Of a stretch of 64,000 nucleotides of DNA, positions 3,441 to 17,286 are shown in pieces. The stretch spans positions 99,528 to 163,527 of the forward strand of contig JBDRTG010000047.1 in the NCBI GenBank assembly GCA_043824255.1, read 5' to 3'. The notes beneath the pieces are model-generated. The model was not told the origin of the DNA. It worked only from the letters and a program-made list of their open reading frames with translations, and did no database searches. Positions within the stretch are counted from its first letter, which is position 1. Every line of letters begins with the position of its first letter. This DNA comes from a bacterium (lineage in GTDB: Bacteria; JAHJDO01). Made by a program: the position numbers and the translations under genes.

Positions 3441-3444
3441 AGTA

Positions 3445-4368
3445 TTATCCCGGAAACATAATCACTTTGTTCCCTTTTCCTTTCTTAGCCTGTTCCATTG
3501 CGCGATATAATTTATTATTTAATTCTTCTGCAACGTCGCCATCAATGGGGTTGGCAACTATACCTGCGCTTACAGTAATCTTTGTATCTTTTATTACACT
3601 TTTTGCATCTGGGATAGATTCATTGGCAACCGCTTTTCTTACTTTTTCAGCAAGAGCATAAGCTTCCTTTTTATTGATCTCAGGGAGAATAATGCAGAAT
3701 ATGGTATCCTTGCAACGAGCTACCTTGTCAATATCTCTTGCATTCTCCTTCAGGATACCTGCAATCTTCTTTATAACCTTATTCTTAATATTTCCGCCAA
3801 GTTTTTTCAAATATACATCCAGATTGTCAACATCAAACCCAATTATAGAACATGGACGCTCATACATAGCTGCCCGTTTCAACTCTTCGTTCAAATATTC
3901 TTCGTAATATTTCAAGTTATATAAGCCCGTTAATTTGTCTGTAATGGTTAAGGAATTGGTTTTTTCAAGCAATCTATTGATTTCATAGCTGAGACCGCTT
4001 ATTTTTGCCTCAGTTTGATAAAGATCAGACATATCCCCTCTAAGCTTTTTTGTAATTTTATCCAATGAGACGCTTAATTCGTCCATTCCCACTTCTTTTA
4101 ATTCCGGATCATCTGCTATTTTAGCTTTTGCCATCATCTTCACTATATTTGTATTAATTTTTTTAATCAGAAACATTAAGAACGCTATAACACCAAGCAG
4201 AATAGCTATGCTGACATAAAGCACAACCTGATCCCATGATAATGCGTATGTGCCTAAAAAAACAAATGCTCCTATCAATATCAGCATAATAATTACAAGA
4301 GCAATGTTTATAAAAATATTACGATGGGCATGTGCCTTTGTTATCGACATATCTTCGCTTCTCTTCAT
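3445..4368 (-). CDS. Membrane-anchored GGDEF-domain protein with a degenerate active site (KDTIF in place of GGDEF) and an intact RxxD I-site. It is predicted to be a c-di-GMP receptor rather than a cyclase.
   Basis: Two N-terminal TM helices are present. The GGDEF-fold landmarks are LTGLYNLKYY, FDVDNLDVY, the ARDIDKVARCKDTIF block aligned to RxxD...R-Y-GGEEF, ITVSAGIV and LYRAMEQAKKGKGNKV. Confidence 0.7.
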   Translation of the reverse strand: MKRSEDMSITKAHAHRNIFINIALVIIMLILIGAFVFLGTYALSWDQVVLYVSIAILLGVIAFLMFLIKKINTNIVKMMAKAKIADDPELKEVGMDELSVSLDKITKKLRGDMSDLYQTEAKISGLSYEINRLLEKTNSLTITDKLTGLYNLKYYEEYLNEELKRAAMYERPCSIIGFDVDNLDVYLKKLGGNIKNKVIKKIAGILKENARDIDKVARCKDTIFCIILPEINKKEAYALAEKVRKAVANESIPDAKSVIKDTKITVSAGIVANPIDGDVAEELNNKLYRAMEQAKKGKGNKVIMFPG

Positions 4369-4383
4369 AGTGATAGCTCCTTA

Positions 4384-5781
4384 TTATCTTGATATTTTAT
4401 CAATATTCAGATTTATATCAGTCCCTTTCCATATTTTTGTCGGTAGTTTTTTATCAGGATTTGTTTTTCCCCAGGTTTCATCCATTTGCTTAACCCTTGC
4501 TTTTTCCTCTTCAGTCAATTCAGTCTCCTCTGTTACAATAGTAGGAGTGATCAGAACAATTAATTCCATTCTTGTCTTAGTGGTGGTGTTCTTTTTGAAA
4601 AGATATCCAAGTAATGGAATATCTCCGAGTATGGGTACCTTATACACAGTAACGGTGTTATAATTTCGCCTGAGCCCGCCAACTATAACCATACGGCCAT
4701 CCTTGGTCAATAGATTCGTCTCTAATGAGCGAGAGTCTATTATGGGTTCGGAACTATATTCACCTACTGAAAAACTATGTTTTGGCTTAACAAGCATGGA
4801 GACAAACCCGTCACTTGTTATGTGGGGCTTTACAGTAAGATATGTTCCCACCTCTTTAAAGTCAATTGTTGTCATCACTGTTCCATCGGGATTAGTTGTA
4901 ATTTTTGTATATGGAATACTCTCTGTTATTTCTATATTCGCTTCCTGATTATCAAGAACTAAGAGCCTGGGTCGGGCAAGTATTTCCACATCTGCGTTAT
5001 ATCTTAACCATTGAAGAGTCGCTTCAATATCCCACAGACCGACACCGAAGCCGGTAATGGCATGCTGGAGACCTGTAGTCAGAGACTGCCCAAACATGCC
5101 CTCAGTCACTGCTGTTCCGAGTTTCGCTGTCCCAGTTTTTGTAAAATTCCAGTCAATACCGTACTTGGTCTGTCCTGTTATTTTTACATCTACAATAGCT
5201 GCTTCAATAAGAACCTGAGGAGTTTTAACATCCAGTCTCTGCGCAATTTCTGCTATTTGGTCAATATTCTCCTGAATATCAGTAACTATCAGGGTATTTG
5301 TGCGTGAATCGCTCTCAATTTTCCCTCTTGATGAAAGCATTTTTGTAACTGATTTCTGGAGCTTTTCAACGTCTGCAAAATTTAGAGAGAAAATTCTTGT
5401 TACTAACTCTGCCTCTGCCTTTGTAGTCTCCTTAATGGCAAGCTGTTCCCCCTTTATTTTTTTCATCTTCTCTGCAGTCATAACCTTTATCAAATTTCCC
5501 TCTCGCTCGTAAGCATACCCGCTGACATCAAGAATTGTCTGTAACGCTTGTTCCCAACCTACATTTTGAAGAAGAAGCGAAACTGTTCCTCTCACTTCTT
5601 CTCCGGCAACTATATTGACGTTACCCTTATGGGAAAGCATTCTTATAACATTGCGTATATCAGCGTCTTTAAGGTCTAATGTGATCTTTTCGCCTTCCAG
5701 CTGATTACCCGCATATGAGACAGAACTAAAAACCAGACCAACACACATTGCAAGTACTAGAAAAACATGTAATTTCCTCAT
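4384..5781 (-). CDS. pilQ: Type IV pilus secretin PilQ (GspD family)
   Basis: It has a signal peptide and N0-like domains. The C-terminal secretin signature is VYKVPILGDIPLLGYLFKKNTTTKTRMELIVLITPTIV. Confidence 0.9.
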   Translation of the reverse strand: MRKLHVFLVLAMCVGLVFSSVSYAGNQLEGEKITLDLKDADIRNVIRMLSHKGNVNIVAGEEVRGTVSLLLQNVGWEQALQTILDVSGYAYEREGNLIKVMTAEKMKKIKGEQLAIKETTKAEAELVTRIFSLNFADVEKLQKSVTKMLSSRGKIESDSRTNTLIVTDIQENIDQIAEIAQRLDVKTPQVLIEAAIVDVKITGQTKYGIDWNFTKTGTAKLGTAVTEGMFGQSLTTGLQHAITGFGVGLWDIEATLQWLRYNADVEILARPRLLVLDNQEANIEITESIPYTKITTNPDGTVMTTIDFKEVGTYLTVKPHITSDGFVSMLVKPKHSFSVGEYSSEPIIDSRSLETNLLTKDGRMVIVGGLRRNYNTVTVYKVPILGDIPLLGYLFKKNTTTKTRMELIVLITPTIVTEETELTEEEKARVKQMDETWGKTNPDKKLPTKIWKGTDINLNIDKISR

Positions 5782-6233
5782 AATTTATCTCCACTCATTT
5801 TTACACTATATTCCTTATTCATATATCTGATCACTATTTCTTCTCTGGTTATTGATACAATTTTGCAGTTGCTGATACTATCTCCTATCGCGACAATCTT
5901 ATCGTTTATAATAGCAAGGGGCTTGATCTCATCAAACAGAACCCCCTCTATTTTCATCTCGGGCAATTTTGAACTTATAAAACTCCAGCCAGTCGGGGCC
6001 ATAACGGTCTTATTCTCTGATATAAGAGGGATAAATGGGTCTCTTCTTCCATGAGTGTTATACACAAAAACAGGTTCTCTATTCTTAGGTTCTGAGATTT
6101 TTTTTGTTGAAATATTAACCTTCTTTTGTGTTGATAAACTCGCATTATCCTGCGCAGGCTTTGAACAGCCGGAAGATAAGAGAAGGAACAAAGACACAGA
6201 GCAAAGAAAAACTCTAAACATTGTTTTGGTCAT
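5778..6233 (-). CDS. pilP: Pilus assembly lipoprotein PilP
   Basis: It has a lipobox (LLLSSGC) and is 151 aa. It sits between pilO and pilQ with 4-bp overlaps. Confidence 0.7.
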   Translation of the reverse strand: MTKTMFRVFLCSVSLFLLLSSGCSKPAQDNASLSTQKKVNISTKKISEPKNREPVFVYNTHGRRDPFIPLISENKTVMAPTGWSFISSKLPEMKIEGVLFDEIKPLAIINDKIVAIGDSISNCKIVSITREEIVIRYMNKEYSVKMSGDKL

Positions 6234-6778
6234 TTGAATTTTGTCTCCTGAAAAATGAATATATCCAGATAAATATCTGCATTATGTTTTAACGCATCCT
6301 TTTTATCTGATGTAATATTTATATGATTTATCTTAACGAATCTTTCCAGATTCTCCAGTTTGTTCACGAATCTGGCTATCTGATGATAGCCACCCTTAAT
6401 ACCAAGCGCTATCGGGTATTCAGTATATATGCTGGTTTTACCTGATGTCTTTAACTTGCCTGGATCAATAGACATTAATTTAACTTTATGTTCATTAGCG
6501 ATATCTGTCAGTGAGGATAGAAAGTCAGGGATTTTATCCTCTCCGGGCATGCGTTTCTGGTATTCTTTTATTAGTTTTTGCACTGTCTGAAATTCACGTT
6601 CTAACTGAGGTTTTTTAGAAACCATAATCCTTGCTTTTTGTATTTCAGCTTTTTTCTGTGTTATGTTTTTTCTCAAGAGAGAAATCCGTGCAATCTGAGG
6701 TGTTAACAAATAATAATAACCCAGAAGAATTCCCAGGGCTGCAATAACAAATAAGATAATTCGTTCATTCTTTTTCAT
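6230..6778 (-). CDS. pilO: Pilus assembly protein PilO
   Basis: It has a single N-terminal TM segment, a coiled coil and a ferredoxin-like C-terminus. It sits between PilN and PilP. Confidence 0.7.
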   Translation of the reverse strand: MKKNERIILFVIAALGILLGYYYLLTPQIARISLLRKNITQKKAEIQKARIMVSKKPQLEREFQTVQKLIKEYQKRMPGEDKIPDFLSSLTDIANEHKVKLMSIDPGKLKTSGKTSIYTEYPIALGIKGGYHQIARFVNKLENLERFVKINHINITSDKKDALKHNADIYLDIFIFQETKFK

Positions 6779-7446
6779 TGCTTAAATCTACATCCTATTT
6801 TAAATGACATAATATCTACATCTGCTACACTAACCCGACAGGTAGATACAAGGTTGACACTGGAGAAGTCGCTTGAAAAAATACTATCCTCCCTGACTTT
6901 TTTAATTAAGTCTCCAATGCGCCTTGTCATATCTTCATTTTCTCTTGACAGAGCCATGCCCTCCAGAATAAAGACATTGTAGCTCTTCTTAACCTTTTTG
7001 CCTGCGTCAGGACTCGCTTTCGTTGAGATACCTGCCTTTCCATGACCACCAGGTGTTACAGAAACCATTTCAGTCCTTTTTTCAACAGCCGTCTTTGTAA
7101 GCCACGTCTGGGTAGGCAATATATCGCTTAACTGGTTTAATCTCTTTGCCCATATGATTCGGGAGTGAATAAGTTTTTTCAAAAGAGATATCTTTCTATT
7201 AATAGATTTCTTTGCGCTTTCCAACTTCTCCGCCTCACGCATTATCGGTTCTAATTTAGAATATTCAACTACCAGTTTGTTATGCGTCCATCCCATGAAC
7301 TTTGCGCTGGAAAAACTGATAAGATAAATAAGAACCATTACAACAACCAGTATAACGCCCCCTGTTATGAAGATTTCCATTCCGGGTAGTTTTAGACTTC
7401 TTCTAGCTTTTCTTAACTCAATGGGGAGTAGGTTTACAGTAATCAT
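6775..7446 (-). CDS. pilN: Pilus assembly protein PilN
   Basis: The N-terminus, MITVNLLPIELRKARR, precedes a TM segment. This is the PilN-type N-terminus that binds PilM. Confidence 0.75.
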   Translation of the reverse strand: MITVNLLPIELRKARRSLKLPGMEIFITGGVILVVVMVLIYLISFSSAKFMGWTHNKLVVEYSKLEPIMREAEKLESAKKSINRKISLLKKLIHSRIIWAKRLNQLSDILPTQTWLTKTAVEKRTEMVSVTPGGHGKAGISTKASPDAGKKVKKSYNVFILEGMALSRENEDMTRRIGDLIKKVREDSIFSSDFSSVNLVSTCRVSVADVDIMSFKIGCRFKQ

Positions 7447-8495
7447 TTTATGCCTCTCAGAGCAAGCCCGACAGCAACTGTTAAAAATGGATAAAGTCTT
7501 TTTATTCTCTCTGCATTGATTTCGTCTGATATTTTCAGGTTATTGGTTGCATTCCAAGTGTGCGTTTCTACTCCAATTTTTTCATGCATGATATCGCTTA
7601 TTATGGAAATCTGTGAACTGCCTCCGCTCAAGTATATATCTGCGATGTTCTTATCAGGAACTTGACTTTCATAGTAATCAAACGACATGTGTATCTCATT
7701 AACGAGATTACTCGTAATATGTTTTATCGTCTCTGTTACTTCCTTGGATCTGCTTTTTGCTTTTTTTGTCTCTTCAGCTTTTTTAATATCAATACCTAGA
7801 TCCTCACTAATAGCCTTGCTATAATCCGTGCCCGCAATATTTATATCCCTTGTGAGCCTTGAAGTACCATTATCAAGTATGCTTATATTTGTCATCTGAG
7901 CGCCAATATTTATAAGCGAAATTACATTATCCTTTTTCTTAAAGACAGAGTTGAGCGCATGTTCAAAGGCATTTATAGCGGCGAAGGAATCAATATCAAT
8001 AGCAACCGGCTCCAGATTACAGGCTTTTAACAGTTCCAATCGTTGATTGATTAAGTCTTTCTTAACAGCGACAAGCATTACTTCTATCATGTTTGTCTCG
8101 CTTGCTATGTTATCTAAAACTTGAAAGTCAAATTCCACTTCATTCATATCAAAAGGAATGTGTTTTGCAGCTTCATACTTCAAAGAAGCGCTTAAGTCTT
8201 CTTCTGACATCTTTGGAACACGAATATATCTTACAATTACCGATTGTCCCGAAACTCCTATAGTAACCCTAGTGGTTGCGATATTCGCTTCTATAGAAGC
8301 CTTCTTAATAGCAGTAATTACACTATCCTTGTTATCTCCAATTATTTCAGCTGCGCCAACTTTACTCAAGCGCAAGGACTCTCCATCTCCGGTAAGTTCG
8401 ACAATCTTGACAGCACTGCTTCCTATATCTAATCCTAAACTGGTTCTGGATTTAGGCTTTGCGCTGAAAAGTTTTGTAATTGATTTAGGTATCAT
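7443..8495 (-). CDS. pilM: Pilus assembly ATPase-like protein PilM (actin/FtsA fold)
   Basis: It has the LGLDIGSSAVKIVEL phosphate-1 motif, is 350 aa and overlaps pilN. Confidence 0.85.
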   Translation of the reverse strand: MIPKSITKLFSAKPKSRTSLGLDIGSSAVKIVELTGDGESLRLSKVGAAEIIGDNKDSVITAIKKASIEANIATTRVTIGVSGQSVIVRYIRVPKMSEEDLSASLKYEAAKHIPFDMNEVEFDFQVLDNIASETNMIEVMLVAVKKDLINQRLELLKACNLEPVAIDIDSFAAINAFEHALNSVFKKKDNVISLINIGAQMTNISILDNGTSRLTRDINIAGTDYSKAISEDLGIDIKKAEETKKAKSRSKEVTETIKHITSNLVNEIHMSFDYYESQVPDKNIADIYLSGGSSQISIISDIMHEKIGVETHTWNATNNLKISDEINAERIKRLYPFLTVAVGLALRGIK

Positions 8496-8533
8496 AAATC
8501 AGATTCTACTATTATGAAATGCTGCTGTCAAAT

Positions 8534-9544
8534 TTAATACTCCTGCCAGGAACCGCTTACTATACGCCACGGCAGGTTGTTGTCAAAAGCATTTGCTACA
8601 TTGACAGAATTATAAACTACCAAGGGTCTTCCTGTAGATATTGTTGCAGATGTATCAGCTTGAGTCTGGACAAGAACTGACCCGGAAATCTCGGGATTTC
8701 CACTTATTGTCAGATTTCCAAATACATACATTATACCCTCAAATGTGCCGCCTGCTACATCAAGATCACCGTCTACTACAAGGATTCCGCTTCCATACCA
8801 TCCTGTCGTTGTAACCTTAAACGATGAATTATCCTGAAATTTAACCCAGGTAATTCCATCCACGTCTGAATTGTTCGGAGGGTCAGTATAGTTTCTGGTT
8901 GATATGCCTTCCATTTCTTCTTTCGTCAGGCCAAATATATCTTCAATTGATGGAAAAGGAGCATTACTTATTGGCGGACTGCCTGTTATTTCCCCAGAAC
9001 CATCTGTAGTGGCTGTAAAACCCGCTGGAACCGTTACGCCCGTACTGGTACCTCCGGCTATTAGTCCATTTCCACTGACCAGAACATTACCACCCGCTTG
9101 AAGTGCAGAATTAACAGCTCCTGGATTTCCAATTCGTTCCGCATCAACTTTCACTGTCCTTTCTACCTTGTCTATATTTGTCACGCTCGGAGTATATCCG
9201 GTTGCTGTGATAGCCGCACTTGTTGATGTTACGTTTGATACGCTTATTGTATAATCTCCTATAACCTTCCCATCTTGGGTCTGGAAGGAAAGAACGGTCT
9301 TTGTGTAAACTGCTCCTGAAGTGTCCCAGCCAACCCATGAACCCTGGCCAAATCCTAGCTCCCATAATGCCGCCTGAACTCCTGATTCTGCAAGATTCCT
9401 TGCTGCAGATAGACGATAGGACCTGATTGTAAGCTTTTTTTGGAAAACGACTGTGGAAAGATACGCTCCGGCTATAATGGCAATAATAAGCATCACTATA
9501 GCTGAAATAACCAATACGCTTCCGCGTCTATTTCTATACATCAA
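8534..9544 (-). CDS. PilX_N-like pilus-associated protein, a putative tip or minor pilin adhesin
   Basis: It has an N-terminal hydrophobic helix followed by LAESGVQAALWELG (PilX N-terminal pattern). Its C-terminal half has G/S/T-rich beta-helix-like repeats. It is a paralog of the upstream gene. Confidence 0.55.
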   Translation of the reverse strand: MMYRNRRGSVLVISAIVMLIIAIIAGAYLSTVVFQKKLTIRSYRLSAARNLAESGVQAALWELGFGQGSWVGWDTSGAVYTKTVLSFQTQDGKVIGDYTISVSNVTSTSAAITATGYTPSVTNIDKVERTVKVDAERIGNPGAVNSALQAGGNVLVSGNGLIAGGTSTGVTVPAGFTATTDGSGEITGSPPISNAPFPSIEDIFGLTKEEMEGISTRNYTDPPNNSDVDGITWVKFQDNSSFKVTTTGWYGSGILVVDGDLDVAGGTFEGIMYVFGNLTISGNPEISGSVLVQTQADTSATISTGRPLVVYNSVNVANAFDNNLPWRIVSGSWQEY

Positions 9545-10701
9545 TCATACCATTGAGTAACCGTAACAGTTCCAGGAAATCCCCCGGGATTTACATTCGC
9601 CAAGGCTTCATCATAATGAATGCCGCCGTTTCCACTATCTTGTACTGTATCCCCTACAAATGCGCCAAAAAGGTCTCCATTCCCTGAAACCTTCAACTCG
9701 GCTTTCGGGGCATATATTGCTCCTGCAAAGTCTCCATTACCTGTAAATTGCACACTTGTACAACTATCTGTTCCATAAAGCAGACAATCGGATGGGGTGC
9801 CAGGATTTGAGATACCATTCCCAGTTATATGACAAGTTCCTGAGACGTAAATAGTAACCTCGCCACTAATTATTAATGTTGCATTTCCTGTAATCTGTAT
9901 TGATGTAAACCAATATGTTCCGGATGTAAGGGTCTGTGTATTATTCCCTGATATTGACAAACCACCACTACTACTTACACCAGCTGGGACAGTGACTGAT
10001 GGCATTGGAAACAGAGTGGATGCAGCTGTTTTTTGCCCATTCAATACAGCGTTTCCAGAAGTGGTTATTGCAGTATTTACATCCCCACCCGGACCAATCT
10101 GAGCATTTCCATTAACTATAGCATTCCCACTTAAAGCGACGGCTCCGGATGATGTTGCATTAGTGCCCACAGAACCGTTGCTACCGGGTGACTGACTGGC
10201 ATACGTTCCATTGTCAGAGTTATAGCTATCGGACGCACCGTTACCTGAAAGAGTAACGCTCTTATCTCCAAATATTCCTTGTGTAAACGGCGAACCGCTT
10301 ACCTGAAGATTAGCATTTATTAACTTGGAAAACCTGTTTATGTCAGTTACATTGGGAGCTGTTCCTGTAGCTGTAACTGTAGGAGTACCTGTAGCTGAGT
10401 TGTTAACTGTGACCGTAACACTTCCCACTGCTCTGCCGCCTGCGTCTGATAGAGTAATGGTTTGGACAGGATCTCCGTTTGCATCAACTGCCCAGGTGGT
10501 AATATCGCCATATGCATATTCATAAATTGCTCTTTCTATGCCTGCTTCTGCAAGATTGACCGCAGCTGTATGCCGATATGACCTATTTGTCATTCTATTC
10601 TCAAAAACAATTCTCGAGAGATAGGTACCCGCTATGACAAATAAGGATGTAGAAACCAAAGCAGTTAGTACCAGAATGCTACCTTTTCTGTTCAGTTTCA
10701 A
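9541..10701 (-). CDS. PilX_N-like pilus-associated protein with an extensive G/S/N/T-rich repeat region, a putative adhesin
   Basis: The N-terminal helix is followed by LAEAGIERAIYEYAYG. Repeats include SGNGASDSYNSDNGTYAS and GNAIVNGNAQIGPGGDVNTAITTSGNAVLNG. Confidence 0.55.
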   Translation of the reverse strand: MKLNRKGSILVLTALVSTSLFVIAGTYLSRIVFENRMTNRSYRHTAAVNLAEAGIERAIYEYAYGDITTWAVDANGDPVQTITLSDAGGRAVGSVTVTVNNSATGTPTVTATGTAPNVTDINRFSKLINANLQVSGSPFTQGIFGDKSVTLSGNGASDSYNSDNGTYASQSPGSNGSVGTNATSSGAVALSGNAIVNGNAQIGPGGDVNTAITTSGNAVLNGQKTAASTLFPMPSVTVPAGVSSSGGLSISGNNTQTLTSGTYWFTSIQITGNATLIISGEVTIYVSGTCHITGNGISNPGTPSDCLLYGTDSCTSVQFTGNGDFAGAIYAPKAELKVSGNGDLFGAFVGDTVQDSGNGGIHYDEALANVNPGGFPGTVTVTQWYD

Positions 10702-10716
10702 ATAACATCACCTCCA

Positions 10717-11271
10717 TTATTTATTCCTTAATTTTACAGACGTATTTAAAGTTTTTGTATGTGTTTTATTCATAACAGTTGCTGTGCTTGTAATTGATAT
10801 TGTTATGCGACTAGCGCCAGCAAGAGTTGGAAGATAGCCAAATGCCAGGTTAGATATATTTGAACTTATATTCTTGGTTCCTGAGGTTCTTGTGCTTCCA
10901 ACTGCTGCCCAGGTTGTTTTCTCTAAGTTAGTGCCATTTAATGCATACCTAAAATAATCATTAGATCCGGTTATTGGATTTCCACTGGCATCGATTGAAG
11001 ATACCTCCAGGACCAACTGCTGGAGCGTACTTGCAGGTACACTTCCTATTGCAGTACTCACTACATCTCCTGCACGCCTTGTGTCCTGACTTATATTATC
11101 CAGAACTAATCTCACATTTTTTTGTGTATCAAGATAACGAGAGTCAAAAACAAACATTTGATTGCCTCTTATAAATAGAAATAAAACGGCACTCAATATC
11201 ACTATTCCGATTGAAGCAGCAATAATAACTTCCATTATCGTAAAACCGCCTGAAAGCCGCTTCTTTTTCAT
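10717..11271 (-). CDS. Minor pilin with a prepilin-type N-terminal cleavage/methylation domain (PilW-like)
   Basis: MKKKRLSGG|FTIMEVIIAASIG is a class III signal with Glu at +5. Confidence 0.7.
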   Translation of the reverse strand: MKKKRLSGGFTIMEVIIAASIGIVILSAVLFLFIRGNQMFVFDSRYLDTQKNVRLVLDNISQDTRRAGDVVSTAIGSVPASTLQQLVLEVSSIDASGNPITGSNDYFRYALNGTNLEKTTWAAVGSTRTSGTKNISSNISNLAFGYLPTLAGASRITISITSTATVMNKTHTKTLNTSVKLRNK

Positions 11272-11272
11272 T

Positions 11273-11713
11273 TTAGATGCCTCCGTTAGTTACAAGCGTA
11301 GTAATGCTTCTACTGAATGCTTGCCCCTGCGCCCCTATCCACTGAACTGTTATACTGACCTGTTTTATATTGCTGTCAATAAAATCAGAAATTGAAAGCA
11401 ATACTACTCCGCTACTAAGATTTGCAAGTCCCTGTGTAACATTTCCTGTGATAGTAGTAAAATCCTGATTGCTGAATGTTCCCCAACCAGTTATTGTTGC
11501 AAATGAACTGTCGCGTACTATTTCCATTGCGTCCTGCGCTATCTTTGTAGCGGTAGAGATTTCAGCTGTTCTTCTAATCGTTGCAGGTCCATTGGAAAAC
11601 GCAGTAAAAAGGCCAATTAAACCAACACTCAGAATCAAAATGGCTATCATGGTTTCTATTAACGTAAACCCACGATTTAATTTAACTATCCGTATGTCTT
11701 TGCGCTTTTTCAT
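11273..11713 (-). CDS. Minor pilin with a prepilin-type N-terminus (PilV-like)
   Basis: The N-terminus is LNRG|FTLIETMIAILILSVGLIG. Confidence 0.7.
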   Translation of the reverse strand: MKKRKDIRIVKLNRGFTLIETMIAILILSVGLIGLFTAFSNGPATIRRTAEISTATKIAQDAMEIVRDSSFATITGWGTFSNQDFTTITGNVTQGLANLSSGVVLLSISDFIDSNIKQVSITVQWIGAQGQAFSRSITTLVTNGGI

Positions 11714-11737: not shown

Positions 11738-12187
11738 TCATAGTGAGAATGGCTGTGCTGCAACAAAAGCTGCTCCATGTCCTCTGCCAGCTACTCCGTT
11801 CGGACACGTAATCCGGATTTTCCCAACTGGCGTTGAATCTGCCATATATCCAGCACCGGCTCCTATGGGACAGGTGGGGACGGTCTTTAGGTATCCTGTA
11901 GCAGCCACTAGTCCCCATGTTCCTGTTGCAGGAGCTGCGTTCCACACAATCGCCCCAGCTGCAAATCCAGCGCCGCCATTAGTCGCATCAAGATTTTCCT
12001 CTATACACACCTGTTCAAGCCCGGATGCAATCTGTTTCATGTTGTTTGTACATACAACATCTCTGGATCTCGTTCTATTCTTCAGGAAATTAGGTATAGC
12101 TATAGTTAATAAAAGCGCAATGATTGCAACAACAATCATAATTTCAACAAGTGTAAAACCTCTGCCCTTTCCCCAAACAACTACCAT
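11738..12187 (-). CDS. Type IV pilin (PilA/GspG-like), second tandem copy
   Basis: GRG|FTLVEIMIVVAIIALLLTIAIPNF. The C-terminus has Cys pairs (VPTCPIG...ITCPNG). Confidence 0.85.
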   Translation of the reverse strand: MVVVWGKGRGFTLVEIMIVVAIIALLLTIAIPNFLKNRTRSRDVVCTNNMKQIASGLEQVCIEENLDATNGGAGFAAGAIVWNAAPATGTWGLVAATGYLKTVPTCPIGAGAGYMADSTPVGKIRITCPNGVAGRGHGAAFVAAQPFSL

Positions 12188-12214
12188 CCAACACCCCTTT
12201 CGAAATATGACAGC

Positions 12215-12234
12215 GGCGGGAGAAAACTCCCGCC
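12215..12234 (-). terminator. GC-rich stem-loop between the two pilin genes, a possible partial terminator or attenuator
   Basis: ggcgggag-aaaa-ctcccgcc forms an 8-bp perfect stem. It is followed on the minus strand by only a weak U-tract (tgtcatatttcg). Confidence 0.4.
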
Positions 12235-12272
12235 ACTATTATATGTCCTTTCAGGCCTTTCAGCAAGTAGCT

Positions 12273-12710
12273 TTATTGCAGTGTATATGGATTATTAGTA
12301 GCCTGAAAATTTGGCCCATGGCTTGTCAGACTTGGACAAGTAATCTGAAATACCCCAACTGTTGATGAAGCCGCTGTATAAGCACCAGATGCTATAGGAC
12401 ATGTAGGAGCTGTCTTCAGGTATGCTGTACTGCCTACTATTCCCCATGTTCCTGTTGCAGGAGCTGCGTTCCATGTAATCGAAGCAATTCCAGCACCAGC
12501 ACCAGTAGCGTCAAGATCTTCCTCCATGCACACCTGTTCAAGGGCTGATGCAATCTGTTTCATGCCATTTACGCATACAGCATCTCTGGATCTACTTCTG
12601 GACTTGATGAAGTTAGGAATAGCTATCGCTGCTAAAAGCCCAATAATCGCTACAACAATCATAATCTCAACAAGCGTAAAACCTCTTTTACTGCGAAGTA
12701 ATCTAATCAT
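12273..12710 (-). CDS. pilA: Type IV pilin (PilA/GspG-like). It is promoter-proximal and the likely major pilin.
   Basis: KRG|FTLVEIMIVVAIIGLLAAIAIPNF. The C-terminus has Cys pairs. It lies directly downstream of a GG-N10-GC promoter and a GGAGG ribosome-binding site. Confidence 0.85.
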   Translation of the reverse strand: MIRLLRSKRGFTLVEIMIVVAIIGLLAAIAIPNFIKSRSRSRDAVCVNGMKQIASALEQVCMEEDLDATGAGAGIASITWNAAPATGTWGIVGSTAYLKTAPTCPIASGAYTAASSTVGVFQITCPSLTSHGPNFQATNNPYTLQ

Positions 12711-12758
12711 TCTCTTTCACCTCCTCTTCAATCAATTTTTTCTCTCGCCTTATATAAC

Positions 12759-12778
12759 AAGCATTTTTCGTGCCAAAG
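12759..12778 (-). promoter_or_regulatory. Sigma54 (RpoN)-type -24/-12 promoter upstream of the pilin operon
   Basis: The minus strand reads cTTTGGCACGaaaaATGCt, with TGGCAC followed by N10 and then GC. It lies about 45 bp upstream of the pilin ATG. Confidence 0.6.
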
Positions 12779-12931
12779 ATATCAGGGCACATCCCCCTGA
12801 ATCCCCCTTCGAAGGGGGACAGTTTCGCCGTAGGCGGAATTAGGAGGATGTTTTCCCCGCCCGAAAACGGGTTCAAAATATTGAATCCCTACAAAAAATT
12901 TTAGTTATCAGGCAAAATATTTTGACATATT

Positions 12932-12965
12932 TGTGAAATAAGCAAAAAAAATTGCCTATTTCACA
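12932..12965. promoter_or_regulatory. 9-bp perfect inverted repeat TGTGAAATA-N16-TATTTCACA in the divergent intergenic region. It is a candidate regulator or enhancer-binding site.
   Basis: The inverted repeat is seen directly in the sequence. It lies about 170 bp upstream of the sigma54-type promoter and about 50 bp upstream of the histidine kinase start. Confidence 0.4.
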
Positions 12966-13016: not shown

Positions 13017-14621
13017 ATGCTGGAGAATCAAAAGGAAACAAAAATTACCATTTTGACAATTTTTGATGAAGAATGTGGAGCTCGGGAACTTCCTTTGGAG
13101 AAAAAGCTTATTACTATTGGAAGACTGGCAGATAATGATATTATAATTTCGGACAAGAGTATATCCGGAAAACATCTTAAACTCACTTTTTTGAATAATG
13201 ACTGGATATTGGAAGATATGCATTCTACGAATGGCAGCTTTGTAAATGGAGAACTTGTTGAAGAAAAGAAGCTGGACGACGGCGACGAGATAGTTATAGG
13301 CAAAACAAGAATTCTATTCGGGGAAACATCTTCTTTCCCGCATCCAGAAGAGAGCTCTTTTACTATTATAAAGGCTGTAACGCCTAGCGCTGTTATTCCC
13401 CCCTCTTATGAAACTGCAAGTAACGAGGAGTTAAAGAGAACTCATAAAATATTAGCTACCCTTTATAAGGCCAGCGAACTTCTTAGTTCTGCACTTAAAT
13501 TAGAAGACGTCCTGAATAAAATTCTGGATTTGATTTTTCAACACATTAGTGCTGACCGAGTTCTTATTATACTCAAAGATGAATTAACAGGTAAACTTGT
13601 TCCTAAAGCAGTGAAGAAAAGAGACGAAAAAGATAGGGCAGAATTAACCGTAAGCCACAGTATTATGAGTAAGGTTTTAGATGAAGGTAAATCGGTAATC
13701 TGTTCGGATGCTTTAGAAGACAAAAGATTTAAAGAACAAATGAGTATTATCCAGCATCAAATTCATTCAGCAATGTGTGTCCCTCTAAGAACAAAAGACA
13801 GAGCCTTGGGCGTAATTTATGCTGATACACTCATGATTAAAGGGGCTTTTAACACCGAAGATTTAAACTTGCTTACTGCATTAGGTAACGAAGCTGCGCT
13901 GGCTATAGATAATGTGCGTTTATATGAAAAAAATCTTAAGGCAGAGCGATTAGCTGGTATAGGACAGGCCATAACCGGCATGGCACACTATGTCAAGAAT
14001 ATTCTCGTGGGGATGGATGGTGGTGGCATCTTAGTAGATATGGGAATAAAACAAAAAAACAATACTTTAATGAATAAAGGGTGGAAGTTAGTTAAAGCCT
14101 CTACAAATAAAGTAAGAGACGTGGTGATGGACATGCTAACCTATTCTAAAGAAAGAAAGCCGCAGCTGCAGCCATGTAATCTAAATGATGTCGTAGATGA
14201 AGTTATAGAGCTAATGAGTAAAAAGGCTGAAGATGCGGGCATTAAACTGCATGCTCATCTTGAGGAAAATATTGGACAGTTCTTATTAGATCCTCAAGTC
14301 ATCCATCGTTCTCTGCTTAACTTGATAAATAATGCTTTTGATGCGATGGAGAAAGATGGGAAAATTACAATTGCTACAGAGTATATAGTTGAGGGGGATC
14401 AGCTTAAATTGTCTGTGTCTGATACAGGATCCGGAATACCTGAAGATGTATTAACAACTCTTTTTACACCTTTTTATTCAAGCAAGGGATTGAAGGGAAC
14501 AGGTCTCGGATTAGCAGTGACACATAAGATAATTAAAGAACATGGTGGAAGAATAGATGTGAATTCCGAGGTCAGCAAAGGGACTACCTTCAGTATATTT
14601 TTACCTGCAAGAAAAGAATAA
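13017..14621 (+). CDS. Cytoplasmic sensor histidine kinase with N-terminal FHA and GAF domains
   Basis: The FHA domain is ITIGRLADNDIIISDKSISGKHLKL...STNGSFVNGE. A GAF region follows. The HisKA segment is MAHYVKNIL, and the HATPase N, G1 and G2 boxes are LINNAFDAM, SDTGSGIP and GTGLGLAV. There is no TM segment. Confidence 0.8.
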   Translation: MLENQKETKITILTIFDEECGARELPLEKKLITIGRLADNDIIISDKSISGKHLKLTFLNNDWILEDMHSTNGSFVNGELVEEKKLDDGDEIVIGKTRILFGETSSFPHPEESSFTIIKAVTPSAVIPPSYETASNEELKRTHKILATLYKASELLSSALKLEDVLNKILDLIFQHISADRVLIILKDELTGKLVPKAVKKRDEKDRAELTVSHSIMSKVLDEGKSVICSDALEDKRFKEQMSIIQHQIHSAMCVPLRTKDRALGVIYADTLMIKGAFNTEDLNLLTALGNEAALAIDNVRLYEKNLKAERLAGIGQAITGMAHYVKNILVGMDGGGILVDMGIKQKNNTLMNKGWKLVKASTNKVRDVVMDMLTYSKERKPQLQPCNLNDVVDEVIELMSKKAEDAGIKLHAHLEENIGQFLLDPQVIHRSLLNLINNAFDAMEKDGKITIATEYIVEGDQLKLSVSDTGSGIPEDVLTTLFTPFYSSKGLKGTGLGLAVTHKIIKEHGGRIDVNSEVSKGTTFSIFLPARKE

Positions 14622-14637
14622 TTTTTACAGAATAGCT

Positions 14638-15024
14638 TTAATCCAAGAATTCTTTTAGAAGCTCTATAATTTTTGCAATACTTCCGGTTTGCTTACCAAA
14701 CTCTTTGTGAACATAATGTGCGCCTTCAAGAACTTTATTATCAAACTGTTCCTTTGTAAGACCAGTATGAAAAATTATTGGTATTTGTTCATATTGAGGA
14801 TTTTCCTTAAGATAGTCTCTTACAGTGCCACCATGCCCTACCATAACCATATCCAGTATGGCAGCATCAATATGTGGCTTCTTGGTGCTAAGCAGGTCTA
14901 TGGCATTTTTACCATTAGGAGCGTCAAACACCTCGTAACTACAGCCAGCTTCTAATATTGTCTTTAATGCCTCCCTCAGCTCATTATCATCCTCTACTAT
15001 CAAAACAGTTTTCTTGCCCATCAT
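14638..15024 (-). CDS. Single-domain response regulator (CheY-like receiver)
   Basis: LIVEDD, D in ILDMVM, T in HTG and K are present. It is 128 aa with no output domain. Confidence 0.8.
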   Translation of the reverse strand: MMGKKTVLIVEDDNELREALKTILEAGCSYEVFDAPNGKNAIDLLSTKKPHIDAAILDMVMVGHGGTVRDYLKENPQYEQIPIIFHTGLTKEQFDNKVLEGAHYVHKEFGKQTGSIAKIIELLKEFLD

Positions 15025-15102
15025 CTCCCTCCTATCGCTCTTATATCTCTTTCTCTTAATAAAATTCTACTACATTATCCTGAGAACTGTCAAATCCGTG
15101 TC

Positions 15103-17286
15103 CTAAGGTCTTCTGCGATAGTCCTCTCTGCGACGGGGCTGGTCACGTCTATCAGAAGGCCCCATACACATCTCTTTAGCCAGATGGGCGGCAAATTCCT
15201 GTGCTCCTAAACCCATCATTTTGCCAATTCTTTTCATATCGTTATAACGATTTTTCAGAAGATAATTCTCTAATAGTTTGCGATCGCCTTTCATAGCTAA
15301 CCCCATTAGCTTCATATCCGCTTCCATCAATTTTTCTATTTCGCCTTTAATTTTTCTTCCTGCCTTAAACATTGGTCCTTCTTCAATTACATCAGGACGC
15401 CTTCCGTCTCTACTTGGAGGAGGCCCAAACTCATCCATCATTATTCTAGCGCATATACCAGTAAACTCCCTTGCTTCTAAACCTACTATCTTACCGATTC
15501 TATTCATCTCTTCATAATGATTTTGCTGAAGATAATTTTCTAAAAGCATGTAGTCGCCCTTCATAGTCAGTCCCATTAACTTCATATCCTTCTCCATCAA
15601 TTTCTCCAGTTCCATCACAATCTTCTTCTCTGGGCCAGAAAGAGGGGTATCTTTAATCATGTCAGGTCGATATTCATCCCTACTTGGAGGAGGACCAAAC
15701 TCATTTATCATTATTCCGGCGCATATACCAGTAAACTCCCTCGCTTCTAAACCTACTATCTTGCCGATTCTATTCATCTCTTCATAGTGATTTTGCAGAA
15801 GATAATTTTCTAAAAGCAGGTGGTCACCAGTCATAGTCAGGCCCATCAACTTCATATCCTTCTCCATCAATTTCTCCAGTTCCGTTACAATCTTCTTCTC
15901 CGTACCGGTAAGAGGCTCCTCTCTTATTCCCCTTACCCCTTTCCCTGTCTTCTCAAACTCCTCAATCCTCTTGATAGCCTCCTTAGCCAGTTTTGCACAT
16001 TTAGTGTCAGGATACTTAATCACAATCTCCTGATAGCCTGATATGGCTTTTATTATTTCACCCTTGTTCTCCATGTCCTGCGCGCGATTAAATAAGGTTT
16101 CTATTTTCTCTTCATCGATTTTCTTTTTAACATATGTAATCTTTGCCCGGGCATTATCTGCGGCAAGAGTTACCGGATAGTTATCAATAATCTTCTGATA
16201 ATACATCATGGCCTGGCTGTATTGTTTCTCTTTAGCTGATTTATCCCCTTTAGAGAAGAGCTGCTCAATTTCGTCCTGTTCTTTGGCCTGATAGCTTGAG
16301 GCAGAAGAAGGAGAAATGGAAGGTTTCAATGTCCGTCTTGAAAACCTTTTGCCTAAGATAACACCAACCATAGCAATTATTATCACCGAAAATACAATGA
16401 TAAGTAATTTACGTCTTCCTTTTTTCTGAGGCGACACTTCAGAAGAAGTACTAATAGGGCTGGGATGAAAAGCGCCTGCTCGATATTTGTTTATATCTTC
16501 AAGTATTTCAGTTGCTGTTTGATATCTGTGGCTTAGATCCTTTATCAGGCATTTTCTAACAATGAATTCTACTTCCCACGGGAGGTCAGGATTTACCTCT
16601 GGTACAGGCCTAGCCTCTACATTTATATGCTGCTGCATAACTCCGTACGGGGTCTCCGCCTTAAAAGGAACCTCTCCTGTCAACATCTCATAAAAAACTA
16701 TACCAAGAGAGTAAATGTCTGAGCGGGAATCTGTTTTCTCTCCTTTAGCCTGCTCCGGAGACATATACTCCGGCGTACCCATAATGGTTCCTGTAAGTGT
16801 GATGCTCTCAGATTCCACAGCTTTAGCTATGCCAAAATCAGTTACTTTTACATGACCATTGTTATCTATCATTATATTTCCCGATTTTATATCGCGATGA
16901 ATTACCCCCTCTTTGTGAGCACATTCCAAAGCCTCAGCAACCTGAAAAGTGATGCTTAAAGCATCCTCACAGGAAAGTGCTCCCCGCTGTTTTATAATCT
17001 CGGTCAAAGTCTGTCCCTTGATAAGTTCCATGGCAAAGTAATACATTCCCTTGTGCTCACCAATGTCGTAGATTTGAACAATCCGGGCATGATTTAATTT
17101 TGCTACTGCTTTAGCCTCACGCTGGAACCTCTCCACAAGGTCTTTGTCTTTAGATAAATGAAATGGAAGAATTTTTATAGCTACATGCCTGTTGAGAGAC
17201 TCTTGATAGGCTTCATAGACGGTACCCATCCCTCCGCTTCCTAATTCTCTGATTATCTTGTATTGTCCGATTTTTTGCCCGATCAT
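15103..17286 (-). CDS. Hanks-type Ser/Thr protein kinase. A TM helix follows the kinase domain, and the extracytoplasmic part has TPR-like helices and three tandem 90-aa repeats.
   Basis: Kinase motifs are GSGGMGTVY, AIK, HRDIKSGNIM, DFGIAK and GTPEYMSPE. The TM segment is LLIIVFSVIIIAMVGVILG. The C-terminus carries three 90-aa repeats. Confidence 0.85.
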   Translation of the reverse strand: MIGQKIGQYKIIRELGSGGMGTVYEAYQESLNRHVAIKILPFHLSKDKDLVERFQREAKAVAKLNHARIVQIYDIGEHKGMYYFAMELIKGQTLTEIIKQRGALSCEDALSITFQVAEALECAHKEGVIHRDIKSGNIMIDNNGHVKVTDFGIAKAVESESITLTGTIMGTPEYMSPEQAKGEKTDSRSDIYSLGIVFYEMLTGEVPFKAETPYGVMQQHINVEARPVPEVNPDLPWEVEFIVRKCLIKDLSHRYQTATEILEDINKYRAGAFHPSPISTSSEVSPQKKGRRKLLIIVFSVIIIAMVGVILGKRFSRRTLKPSISPSSASSYQAKEQDEIEQLFSKGDKSAKEKQYSQAMMYYQKIIDNYPVTLAADNARAKITYVKKKIDEEKIETLFNRAQDMENKGEIIKAISGYQEIVIKYPDTKCAKLAKEAIKRIEEFEKTGKGVRGIREEPLTGTEKKIVTELEKLMEKDMKLMGLTMTGDHLLLENYLLQNHYEEMNRIGKIVGLEAREFTGICAGIMINEFGPPPSRDEYRPDMIKDTPLSGPEKKIVMELEKLMEKDMKLMGLTMKGDYMLLENYLQQNHYEEMNRIGKIVGLEAREFTGICARIMMDEFGPPPSRDGRRPDVIEEGPMFKAGRKIKGEIEKLMEADMKLMGLAMKGDRKLLENYLLKNRYNDMKRIGKMMGLGAQEFAAHLAKEMCMGPSDRRDQPRRREDYRRRP
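15110..15930. repeat. Three direct tandem repeats with a 270-bp period inside the Ser/Thr kinase gene. Copies 1 and 2 are nearly identical and copy 3 is diverged.
   Basis: Anchor strings recur exactly 270 bp apart. ttcatatcc occurs at 15311, 15581 and 15851. ctccagttcc occurs at 15604 and 15874. Confidence 0.85.

Follow-up and report, generated by a model that had tools for sequence, protein, structure and literature searches.

A tandem pair of type IVa pilin genes, first in the pilus operon of an uncultured bacterium and preceded by a probable sigma-54 promoter

Genes at the locus

The stretch of DNA analysed here, 64 kb in length and referred to as the window, includes the part of a type IVa pilus operon that lies nearest to its promoter. 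Two pilin genes lie there in tandem, the one next to the promoter being pil1 (145 residues), with pil2 (149 residues) downstream of it. An earlier note on this DNA had proposed two tandem pilin genes of these lengths and about 60% identity. Both are found, with a protein identity of 61% by BLASTP and a nucleotide identity of 68% over all aligned columns, or 72% with gaps excluded. They are encoded on the minus strand, and the sequences quoted in the earlier note are their reverse complements. The features are collected in Table 1.

Table 1. Features of the pil1-pil2 region, in window coordinates.
Feature	Position	Strand	Remarks
First minor pilin (PilV-like)	11273..11713	-	PF07963; TIGR02523 below its cutoff
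pil2, second major-type prepilin	11738..12187	-	149 aa; PF07963, TIGR02532
33-nt block, pil2 copy	11912..11944	-	identical to pil1 12441..12473
18-nt block CATGAAACAGATTGCATC, MKQIAS region of alpha1	pil1 12547..12564 = pil2 12024..12041	-	identical in both genes
Stem-loop after pil1	12210..12239	-	13-bp stem, UUUU loop; outer helices reach about 12190..12259
Motif A(G/C)TTGCTGAAAG	12257..12268	-	just past pil1 stop; nearly invariant in 11 loci
pil1, type IVa prepilin	12273..12710	-	145 aa, four Cys; PF07963, TIGR02532
33-nt block, pil1 copy	12441..12473	-	encodes WNAAPATGTWG; identical to pil2 11912..11944
Shine-Dalgarno GGAGG, inside GAGGAGGTGA	12720..12724	-	read from sequence; 9 nt before pil1 ATG
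-24/-12 element TGGCACGAAAAATGCT	12760..12775	-	one mismatch to TGGCAC-N5-TTGCW
Variable spacer	12780..12890	-	run of short GC hairpins between dyads and promoter
Proximal dyad GTCAAAATATTTTGCC (UAS B)	12911..12926	-	near-palindrome; conserved in related loci
Distal dyad GGCAATTTTTTTTGCT (UAS A)	12941..12956	-	putative enhancer-binding-protein site; conserved in all related loci

The operon behind the pair encodes minor pilins, PilMNO, a secretin, a GGDEF protein and PilB. The first minor pilin begins 24 nt past pil2, with no hairpin in the gap, and opens the series of minor pilin and assembly genes. PilM, PilO, the secretin and the N_methyl minor pilins form one same-strand run with PilB (1204..11713), which is the association expected of type IVa pilus machinery. 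PilB, in the same operon as pil1 and pil2, scores 699.7 bits against TIGR02538 (cutoff 675.65). No prepilin peptidase was seen within the 64-kb window.

The host is an uncultured bacterium, probably a relative of Omnitrophota. The SecA of its lineage has 55-63% identity to the closest named relatives, nearly all of which are Omnitrophota. The lineage is known solely from metagenomes of anoxic saline-lake and cold-seep origin, the source environments including the anoxic zone of Ace Lake and cold-seep sediments.

Both pilins have a class III signal peptide, with a short, basic leader that ends in Gly and, behind it, a hydrophobic N-terminus with the N-methylation motif (Phe at +1, Glu at +5). 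The leader of pil1 has 10 residues (MIRLLRSKRG, followed by FTLVEIM) and that of pil2 is MVVVWGKGRG, followed by the same FTLVEIM. Scores against PF07963 are 34.9 bits for pil1 and 32.4 bits for pil2 (cutoff 21.2), and against TIGR02532 they are 35.1 and 29.7 bits (cutoff 16.3). The N-terminus of pil1 aligns with the structures of Geobacter PilA-N, Myxococcus PilA and Thermus PilA4, and residues 11-131 align with Thermus PilA4 6xxd. In the AF2 model of pil1 (pLDDT 77.5), residues 13-39 and 42-64 are helical and strands lie within 112-124, giving a long alpha1 with strands after it. C104 and C125 are invariant, and the general plan is the alpha1 plus beta head of a type IVa pilin. Foldseek found no match for this model in the PDB, and the classification therefore rests on sequence. 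Together with PilB, which is above the TIGR02538 cutoff, the PF07963 and TIGR02532 matches and the resemblance of the N-termini to solved type IVa pilins bear out the pilin identity and tandem paralogy of the two genes.

The region of the pil1 Shine-Dalgarno sequence, AGGAGGTGA, is invariant across loci. That of pil2 is weaker (AAGGGG).

A probable sigma-54 promoter and its upstream dyads

The earlier note had described a GG-N10-GC element and a GGAGG ribosome-binding site directly ahead of the promoter-proximal pilin. Both are present. In TTGGCACGAAAAATGCT (12760..12776, minus strand) the GG (12773-12774) and the GC (12761-12762) are exactly 10 nt apart, the -24/-12 element being 65 nt ahead of the pil1 ATG. 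Judged by the position of the element, transcription would start near 12749-12750. The number of -24/-12 motifs in the window is uninformative: when at most one mismatch is allowed there are 2 matches, and 2.26 would be expected.

Comparison with other loci is much more telling. TTGGCAYGAAAAATGC does not vary across 10 non-redundant related loci, its distance from the ATG being 64-66 nt, while the DNA immediately upstream of it is unalignable among those loci and the surroundings have diverged. More distant pilins were obtained by scanning species-representative genomes with an alignment of the pilins, giving 80 loci that, among the matches listed, have at most 53% identity, mostly N-terminal, with the GFTLVEIM pattern dominating the list. 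These matches were useless for orthologue analysis or taxonomy and were re-used for promoter enrichment. They span Verrucomicrobiota, Kiritimatiellia, Lentisphaerae and related phyla. Among the matches listed, 38 of the 80 loci have TGGCAY-N5-(T)TGCW with intact GG and GC within 300 nt upstream of the gene, a density of 1.56 per kb compared with 0.051 per kb in the rest of these loci, or about 30-fold enrichment. The sequence between GG and GC differs in the distant loci, which marks the element as a sigma-54 signature and not a sigma-70 one.

Further upstream are two dyads with the consensus G[GT]CAAA-W4-TTTGCY, 30 bp apart centre to centre. This pattern occurs in the window at these two places only, with 0.36 occurrences expected. 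The proximal dyad has the same sequence, ATGTCAAAATATTTTGC, in 8 of 10 loci. The tandem dyads are kept although the gene next upstream is not the same in all loci (a histidine kinase, an ABC transporter or RNase Y). A metagenome scan with the dyad sequence returned three stretches, two of them pilin loci, with no sign of the site at other genes. The two copies are a precise and conserved candidate site for an activator. The distance from the proximal dyad to the -24 element varies by locus from 84 to 155 nt, and the values (84, 99, 107, 121, 122, 140, 153 and 155 nt) have no helical periodicity.

The spacer between dyads and promoter is itself variable. It is common to L002, L012 and L017, whereas L001, L004, L008, L013 and L014 have other sequence in its place. 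The window has one copy of it. Rfam matched whalefall-1 in this spacer, on the opposite strand and at 24-27 bits, below the gathering score of 37, and this is not accepted as membership.

A sigma-70 promoter could be proposed in place of the sigma-54 one, with TTGGCA (12771..12776) as -35, TATAAG as -10 and the GG-N10-GC spacing a coincidence. The hexamers match TTGACA and TATAAT at five of six positions each, the spacer would be 16 nt, and L004 has a perfect TATAAT. Taken by itself, the -24/-12 pattern occurs in the window no less often than chance predicts, and none of the window ORFs scanned matched rpoN, Sigma54_activat or an enhancer-binding protein. Against this, it is the would-be spacer, GAAAAATGC, that is invariant across loci, whereas the would-be -10 varies (TATAAG, TATAAA, TGTAAG, TGTAGG, ACAAAA) and mostly lacks the key final T. 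L101 alters the spacing by 1 nt. The distant family members, with their unrelated spacers, retain GG-N10-GC at the enrichment given above for the matches listed, and dyads at such distances suit an enhancer rather than a sigma-70 activator site. We therefore regard a sigma-70 promoter as very unlikely.

In orthologous and homologous loci alike, what is conserved is -24/-12 and not a -35/-10 pair. Transcription of pil1 from a sigma-54 promoter, as the earlier note had suggested, is well supported by the invariant element in 10 loci, the dyads and the enrichment, though not by motif count. The trans-acting factors are assumed, given that the scanned ORFs of the window include neither rpoN nor Sigma54_activat. 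Control of the major pilin by sigma-54 with a PilR-type regulator is established in P. aeruginosa, M. xanthus, Geobacter, Xanthomonas, Xylella, Kingella and commensal Neisseria (PMC6058289, PMC6211767, PMC2725144, PMC7170775, PMC3224663, PMC8950971, PMC6528607).

The stem-loop between pil1 and pil2

The earlier note had placed an 8-bp GC stem-loop (12215..12234) between the two pilins as a means for their differential expression. The stem is there, and is the core of the 13-bp stem in Table 1. The 85-nt intergenic RNA has a minimum free energy of -37.7 kcal/mol (z = -5.3), and none of 200 shuffles folds as well. The stem-loop is kept in 11 loci, and at 2 of 16 pairs the changes are compensatory. 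Rfam has no family for the hairpin.

The stem-loop follows the first pilin also in six loci that have no second pilin, and thus signals where the major pilin gene ends. From the loci compared, it is best described as a post-major-pilin element and not an inter-pilin device. A part in differential expression has only partial support: for it there is the conservation with some compensatory changes; against it are these six loci and the short U-tract.

The GC-rich stem-loop of a Rho-independent terminator is present, and a terminator pattern scan reports the site, for the plus strand only. On the coding strand of the window the extended stem is followed by only UUU (in UUUCG), short of the U-run of an intrinsic terminator. 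In relatives the U-tract is UUUU in several cases and absent in four. With only three U after the stem, this is not a canonical intrinsic terminator, and since the tract is weak or absent here, as it is in at least four relatives, it is uncertain whether termination occurs, and stabilisation of the RNA might be the sole effect of the structure.

The possibility was considered that pil2 and the downstream genes have a promoter of their own, TTGCTG (12261..12266) and TATAAT (12238..12243) separated by 17 nt and overlapping the base of the hairpin, with no read-through into pil2 and the hairpin simply ending the pil1 transcript. A perfect TATAAT stands at the right distance from the invariant TTGCTG in the window and in L001, L012, L013 and L014, the motif that contains TTGCTG is kept across all 11 loci with no other evident cause, and assembly genes may plausibly need expression independent of sigma-54. 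However, TTGCTG has only three of the six -35 positions, and was hence missed by the pattern scan. The -10 is not conserved in 6 of the 11 loci (CAAACA, TACAAC, CAAAAC), and TATAAT belongs to the outer helix of the stem-loop, which may be explanation enough. We consider a separate pil2 promoter unlikely, and prefer partial read-through from pil1. A second sigma-54 element ahead of pil2 was rejected, as no GG stands 10 nt upstream of the conserved TTGCT that follows the stop codon.

Distribution and mosaicism of the two pilin types

Orthologues of pil1 occupy the first position in all related loci. Orthologues of pil2 are found at the second position in L001 (95% nucleotide identity), L004, L002 and L010, and are absent from six related loci. 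Only about half of the related loci have a second copy. First-position and second-position pilins each form their own cluster across genomes. This comparison shows pil2 to be an old paralogue, kept in some lineages and lost in others. Among the 11 genes compared between the window and L001, pil1 has the highest divergence (dS 0.28, dN 0.062). The window has two pilin copies only, and no extra silent pilin cassettes or fragments were found in its 64 kb.

The earlier note had suggested looking for chimeric pilin alleles in other strains, and in relatives the search was positive. In 3SEQ-type walks, a tract in the pil1 of L001 resembles pil2 at 12 of 14 informative sites (p = 5e-5), the pil1 of L004 is pil2-like in its 3' part (p <= 1.5e-4), and that of L010 is so at its C-terminus (p = 5e-5). 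The tracts have 82-86% identity to pil2-type DNA compared with 52-78% to pil1-type DNA. They lie in the alpha-beta loop and the C-terminal region, the exposed parts of type IVa pilins. Their donors are not assignable to the pil2 of the same genome. In other loci, the leader and 5' UTR of the first minor pilin have been exchanged with those of pil2. The chimeric alleles imply that exchange between the two pilin types is real in this family.

Identical blocks within the pair

The near-identical stretches that the earlier note described in pil1 and pil2 are real, comprising the blocks of 33 nt and 18 nt in Table 1 and four more of 11-14 nt. The 33-nt run is longer than expected from a uniform column shuffle (p = 2.5e-4) and from a codon shuffle (p = 0.006). 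When only synonymous positions of conserved residues are counted, its identity is not exceptional (p = 0.43). The blocks fall on conserved protein motifs, and the 33-nt block is equally identical to the pil2 of L001. These last two observations mean that the blocks do not of themselves show gene conversion, for which they had been proposed as substrates, although they may possibly serve as such.

The blocks might instead be conserved motifs combined with shared codon usage, pil1 and pil2 of this genome evolving independently and the mosaics of relatives arising by exchange of alleles between lineages and not by conversion of tandem copies. Identical codons make up 68% of the degenerate codons for the same residue in pil1 and pil2, a run of 10 such codons is unremarkable, and the same run is found between this pil1 and the pil2 of L001. 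A Sawyer-type run test on polymorphic sites is marginal (p = 0.053, uncorrected), and a 3SEQ-type test of this pil1 is not significant when L014 serves as orthologous parent (p = 0.25). The tracts in the mosaics are no closer than stated above to any pil2 and are equally near to those of other genomes, and the separate clustering of the two positions indicates that there has been no wholesale concerted evolution. L101 joins an L014-like promoter spacer to an L004-like pilin, which suggests lateral exchange of alleles.

Other observations speak for exchange. Within the 33-nt block, the pil1 of this genome has the pil2 states GCT and GCA (Ala, Ala); the first of these positions is CTT (Leu) in the pil1 of L001 and L014, and the second is GTx (Val) in L001, L014 and L004. 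If L001 is taken as parent, the p value of the 3SEQ-type test is 2e-4. The usually quoted minimum for RecA-dependent exchange is about 25 bp, which a 33-nt exact match exceeds. Finally, pil2-type tracts within pil1 need a donor of pil2 type, and the nearest source is the adjacent gene. The alternative of conserved motifs, independently evolving copies and exchange between lineages is a serious contender, with a probability somewhat short of even. Segment exchange between the pilin types is shown by sequence comparison in relatives, and is only weakly suggested by the 33-nt block of this genome.

Proposed model

We consider it fairly probable that the locus works as follows, taken as a whole. 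The sigma-54 promoter would drive pil1, the presumed major pilin gene. An enhancer-binding protein of the NtrC/PilR type, presumably encoded elsewhere in the genome, would bind the dyads (12911..12956) and loop over the intervening spacer, whose length varies. The strong Shine-Dalgarno sequence and the stem-loop after the stop codon would yield a short, abundant and stable pil1 message, the stem-loop acting as a partial terminator, as a protector of the 3' end, or both. Only a fraction of transcription would pass into pil2, with its weaker ribosome-binding site, and then into the minor pilin and assembly genes. Over evolutionary time, as the relatives show, the pilin types have traded alpha-beta loop and C-terminal segments. 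Copy number has changed through recombination in the conserved coding segment for GFT(L/I)(V/I)E, which the minor pilin also has.

A bolder reading would make the tandem pair a simple two-cassette system for pilin diversification, in which the sigma-54-driven, highly expressed pilin repeatedly borrows alpha-beta-loop and C-terminal segments from its weakly expressed downstream paralogue and trades leaders with the minor pilin. The lineage, uncultured and related to Omnitrophota, would be free-living, and the driver would be pressure by phage or predators and not by an immune system. We think this quite improbable. If it were true, the hairpin-rich variable spacer might also take part in recombination or regulation.

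On the preferred model, the classical design of sigma-54, enhancer and major pilin is extended to an uncultured lineage, and the enrichment of GG-N10-GC among the distant matches listed suggests that sigma-54 control of pilins is widespread in the phyla that they span. The related loci record gain, loss and reshuffling of pilin copies via recombination in the conserved N-terminal coding segment. The current understanding of type IV pili is unchanged by this locus.

Comparison with known systems

The layout of tandem pilins, sigma-54 promoter and hairpin is already familiar from cultured bacteria, and the locus therefore illustrates a known kind of system cleanly and does not define a new one. 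In Dichelobacter nodosus fimA-fimB, a stem-loop or terminator after the major pilin gene lowers downstream transcription. The present locus likewise has a strong GC hairpin directly 3' of the pilin gene and more pilus genes downstream, but in the window, as in several relatives, there is a weak U-tract or none. Similar tandem paralogues of the major pilin are pilAI/pilAII of Pseudomonas stutzeri and pilA1/pilA2 of Legionella pneumophila.

Kingella kingae pilA1-pilA2-fimB also has two related full-length pilin genes in tandem, the first encoding the main, sequence-variable subunit, and its pilus expression is under sigma-54, PilS and PilR (PMC8950971, PMC13170364). By comparison, the pair described here heads a whole minor pilin and assembly operon, and the second copy is not universal among related loci.

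In Neisseria pilE/pilS, variable pilin segments are exchanged between copies via conserved flanks (PMC12871193), and a similar exchange may apply here, the mosaic tracts being significant in relatives. In contrast to pilS, pil2 is a complete gene with ATG, leader and Shine-Dalgarno sequence, and not a silent 5'-truncated cassette. Furthermore, there are just the two copies in 64 kb, and the exchanged tracts are old, as their identities indicate, and not products of a high-frequency programmed process. No G4-type initiating element of the Neisseria kind was identified.

The closest parallel for the promoter is control of pilins by RpoN with PilS/PilR, as for pilA of P. aeruginosa, M. xanthus, G. 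sulfurreducens and X. oryzae, pilA1 of X. fastidiosa, and pilE of commensal Neisseria (Npa/Nps). These too have a -24/-12 element directly upstream of the major pilin, and upstream activator sites, which are putative in the present case (PMC6058289, PMC6211767, PMC2725144, PMC7170775, PMC3224663, PMC6528607). Their pilins have an N-terminus of the same T4a type as pil1 and pil2. They differ from the present locus, which has no adjacent pilS/pilR pair. In four loci the neighbouring genes encode an FHA-GAF histidine kinase, a receiver domain on its own and a Ser/Thr kinase.

Tandem pilin genes and their operon

The two tandem pilin genes, pil1 and pil2, are listed with the elements around them in the table. 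Their products are 61% identical; the DNA identity is 68% when every aligned column is counted and 72% when gaps are left out. Both products have a prepilin N-methylation motif, with a 10-residue leader that ends in Gly and is followed by FTLVEIM, and their N-terminal halves align with T4a pilin structures (Geobacter PilA-N, Myxococcus PilA, Thermus PilA4). An AlphaFold pilin model, which used 20 relatives as input (pLDDT 77.5), has a long α1 helix (residues 13-64), an ill-defined stretch (65-100) and then β strands. The tandem pilins, promoter element, shared blocks and hairpin were correctly observed in the earlier note; their interpretation is considered below.

Features of the pilin locus
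Feature	Position	Strand	Description
pil1	12273..12710	minus	145 aa, promoter-proximal
pil2	11738..12187	minus	149 aa
Longest exact pil1/pil2 match	12441..12473 = 11912..11944		33 nt, encodes WNAAPATGTWG
Stem-loop	12210..12239		13-bp stem, outer helices beyond
12-nt motif, A(G/C)TTGCTGAAAG	12257..12268		just past stop codon of first pilin gene, nearly invariant in 11 loci
-24/-12 element, TGGCACGAAAAATGCT	12760..12775	minus	GG and GC exactly 10 nt apart, one mismatch to sigma-54 consensus
Dyads, G[GT]CAAA-W4-TTTGCY	12911..12926 and 12941..12956		only occurrences of this pattern in the window

Downstream of pil2, on the same strand, lie genes for a PilV-like minor pilin, a second prepilin-like protein, a DUF7305 protein and a 336-aa protein; then PilM, a likely PilN, PilO and a T2SSB-like protein; and finally a secretin, a GGDEF protein, a MshEN-only protein and a PilB ATPase that scores above the TIGR02538 cutoff. 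This gene content places pil1 and pil2 at the start of a type IVa pilus operon. The last three genes occupy 1204..4368; the MshEN-only protein has 177 residues, and PilB carries a MshEN c-di-GMP-binding domain at its own N-terminus. These genes suggest that pilus assembly is under c-di-GMP control.

The comparison drew on eleven more non-redundant loci whose pilins are orthologous. The tandem pair is found in four (L001, L002, L004, L010), and in six (L008, L012, L013, L014, L017, L019) a single major-type pilin is followed directly by the minor pilin; in L101 the downstream sequence is too short to score the copy number. Across genomes the first-position pilins group together, as do the second-position pilins, and the duplication is therefore old, with no wholesale concerted evolution. 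The pil2 genes of the window and of L001, the closest relative, have 95% DNA identity.

A probable sigma-54-type promoter

The -24/-12 element is not statistically unusual on its own, with 2 matches to the sigma-54 consensus seen in 64 kb against 2.26 expected. The sigma-54 assignment made in the earlier note is nevertheless borne out, not by motif count but by comparative evidence, namely conservation at a fixed distance, the dyads and enrichment in distant loci. The sequence TTGGCAYGAAAAATGC is unchanged, 64-66 nt from the ATG, in 10/10 loci with upstream sequence, and the DNA directly 5' of it cannot be aligned among loci. The two dyads, candidate activator sites 30 bp apart, lie 84-155 nt further upstream of the element and are kept in every locus despite the differing upstream neighbour gene.

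Elements with intact GG and GC were also counted in 80 distant pilin loci (L020-L099) from Verrucomicrobiota, Kiritimatiellia, Lentisphaerae, Sumerlaeota and others. The element TGGCAY-N5-(T)TGCW occurs within 300 nt upstream of a pilin-like gene in 38 of the 80, at a density of 1.56 per kb compared with 0.051 per kb elsewhere in the same loci (about 30 times background), and the spacer sequences are unrelated to one another. It is possible to read the same bases as a sigma-70 promoter (TTGGCA, 16 nt, TATAAG), but across loci the putative -10 varies while the putative spacer stays invariant. The pattern agrees with sigma-54 and not with sigma-70, the sigma-54 promoter call is well supported, and sigma-54 control of this pilin family is apparently widespread in the groups named above. 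Neither rpoN nor an enhancer-binding protein was found among the window ORFs scanned.

Between the dyads and the -24/-12 element (12780..12890, minus strand) there are five or six short GC hairpins in series, for example TCCCCCTTCGAAGGGGGA and CAGGGGGATGTGCCCTG. This spacer is single-copy in the window; it is common to L002, L012 and L017, where some of the changes are compensatory, and is replaced by unrelated sequence in other loci. Rfam gives whalefall-1 matches on the opposite strand, below threshold (24-27 bits, gathering score 37).

The stem-loop and intergenic region

The stem-loop, described in the earlier note as an 8-bp structure separating the two pilins, is real and longer than was noticed. 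Folding of the 85-nt intergenic RNA yields -37.7 kcal/mol (z = -5.3), and the structure is found in 11/11 loci, with compensatory double changes in 2 of 16 consensus pairs and single-sided G-C to G-U changes in most of the remainder. It comes after the first pilin gene both in loci that have a second pilin and in loci that lack one; it is a general post-pilin element, part of the major pilin transcript, rather than an inter-paralogue device. On the coding strand only three U follow the stem in the window and none in four relatives, fewer than the U tract of an intrinsic terminator, and its strength as a terminator is uncertain. Going by its position and conservation, it would terminate transcription in part, stabilise the 3' end, or do both.

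An internal sigma-70-type promoter might consist of the TTGCTG in the 12-nt motif and the TATAAT (12238..12243) that lies 17 nt downstream of it, but only 5 of the 11 loci retain the -10. The Shine-Dalgarno sequence is weaker for pil2 (AAGGGG) than for pil1 (GAGGAGGTGA), which is consistent with a lower output of pil2.

The gene that follows the hairpin has a 5' UTR and leader in two forms, exchanged between pil2 and the PilV-like minor pilin across loci (compared in window 11690..11713 and 12163..12212, L004:5976-6060, L008:4521-4610, L019:527-620 and L002:6513-6600). The minor pilin leader stands at the start of L004 pil2, and the pil2-type UTR and leader at the start of the L008 and L019 minor pilins, that of L019 matching L002 pil2 almost base for base. 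This suggests that the pil2 body has been gained or lost through recombination within the conserved GFT(L/I)(V/I)E coding segment that the two genes have in common.

Identical blocks and mosaic alleles

The identical blocks, proposed earlier as substrates for gene conversion, are present but are not in themselves evidence of it. The second-longest exact match is 18 nt, and the apparent significance of the 33-nt run varies with the null model: p = 2.5e-4 for a uniform column shuffle, 0.006 for a codon shuffle, 0.053 (uncorrected) for a Sawyer-type run on polymorphic sites, and 0.43 for synonymous positions of identical residues only. Of the degenerate codons that encode the same residue in pil1 and pil2, 68% are identical gene-wide, and therefore a run of 10 such codons is expected. 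The block also matches pil2 of L001 at 33/33. The blocks are thus largely conserved protein motifs in similar codons.

Within the block, window pil1 shows the pil2 states Ala-Ala. The first position is Leu in L001 and L014 and Ala in L004, as in the window; the second is Val in all three of these close pil1 orthologues. A 3SEQ-type test on window pil1 gives p = 2e-4 with L001 as parent and is not significant with L014 (p = 0.25). Together these are a hint of conversion.

Among the relatives the signal is clear, with mosaic pil1/pil2 alleles present. In L001 pil1, a 6-nt insertion (NLDATNGGAGFAAGAIV) lies within a tract of some 50 nt that is 86% identical to pil2-type DNA compared with 69% to window pil1 (p = 5e-5); pil2-type sequence also makes up the C-terminus of L010 pil1 (p = 5e-5) and the 3' part of L004 pil1 (p at most 1.5e-4). 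The tracts map to the alpha-beta loop and C-terminal region and, at 82-86% identity, are not recent. They are equally near pil2 of several genomes, and therefore a donor cannot be assigned.

Among 11 genes compared with L001, pil1 (12273..12710 vs L001:6001-6444) is the most diverged (dS 0.28, dN 0.062; other genes dS 0.07-0.21, dN 0.010-0.041). Synonymous divergence is low in pil2 and the minor pilins, which rank among the least changed of the set (dS 0.07-0.11). Such a contrast would fit allele import at, or diversifying pressure on, the first pilin alone.

Comparison with known systems

The layout of the locus is of an already known kind. Control of the major pilin by sigma-54 and a PilR-type regulator is textbook knowledge. 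It is described in Pseudomonas, Myxococcus, Geobacter, Xanthomonas, Xylella, Kingella and commensal Neisseria (PMC6058289, PMC6211767, PMC2725144, PMC7170775, PMC3224663, PMC8950971, PMC6528607), and tandem major-pilin paralogues in Kingella (pilA1-pilA2-fimB) and Legionella (PMC8950971, PMC13170364). Exchange of pilin segments is described in Neisseria (PMC12871193), but the silent truncated cassettes that define that system are missing at the window locus.

Neighbouring genes and lineage

The SecA of the window is 55-63% identical to its closest named relatives, nearly all Candidatus Omnitrophota. Related contigs come from Ace Lake and others apparently from cold-seep MAG sets.

Divergent beside the pilin promoter (13017..17286) are genes for a soluble FHA-GAF histidine kinase, whose kinase core resembles NtrB/AtoS/ZraS, a stand-alone receiver and a Ser/Thr kinase with TPR-like repeats. 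Linkage of the histidine kinase to the pilin is limited to four loci and is therefore not read as a sign of function. The trio also lies beside the pilin in L001, L013 and L014; in L016, an L014-type contig cut short at its upstream end, the histidine kinase alone is visible. An ABC transporter or RNase Y takes this place in other loci. An FHA domain adjoining a Ser/Thr kinase points to a two-component input gated by phospho-Thr.

In the Ace Lake relative L004 (L004:9771-11072), a DDE transposase gene stands right after a 345-aa gene, at the position of PilM in the window, where it may break up the pilus operon of that population. Elsewhere in the window, 43980..44915 encodes a protein that joins a CsgG-family (curli secretion channel) domain to a C-terminal series of several zinc-ribbon domains, an unusual combination.
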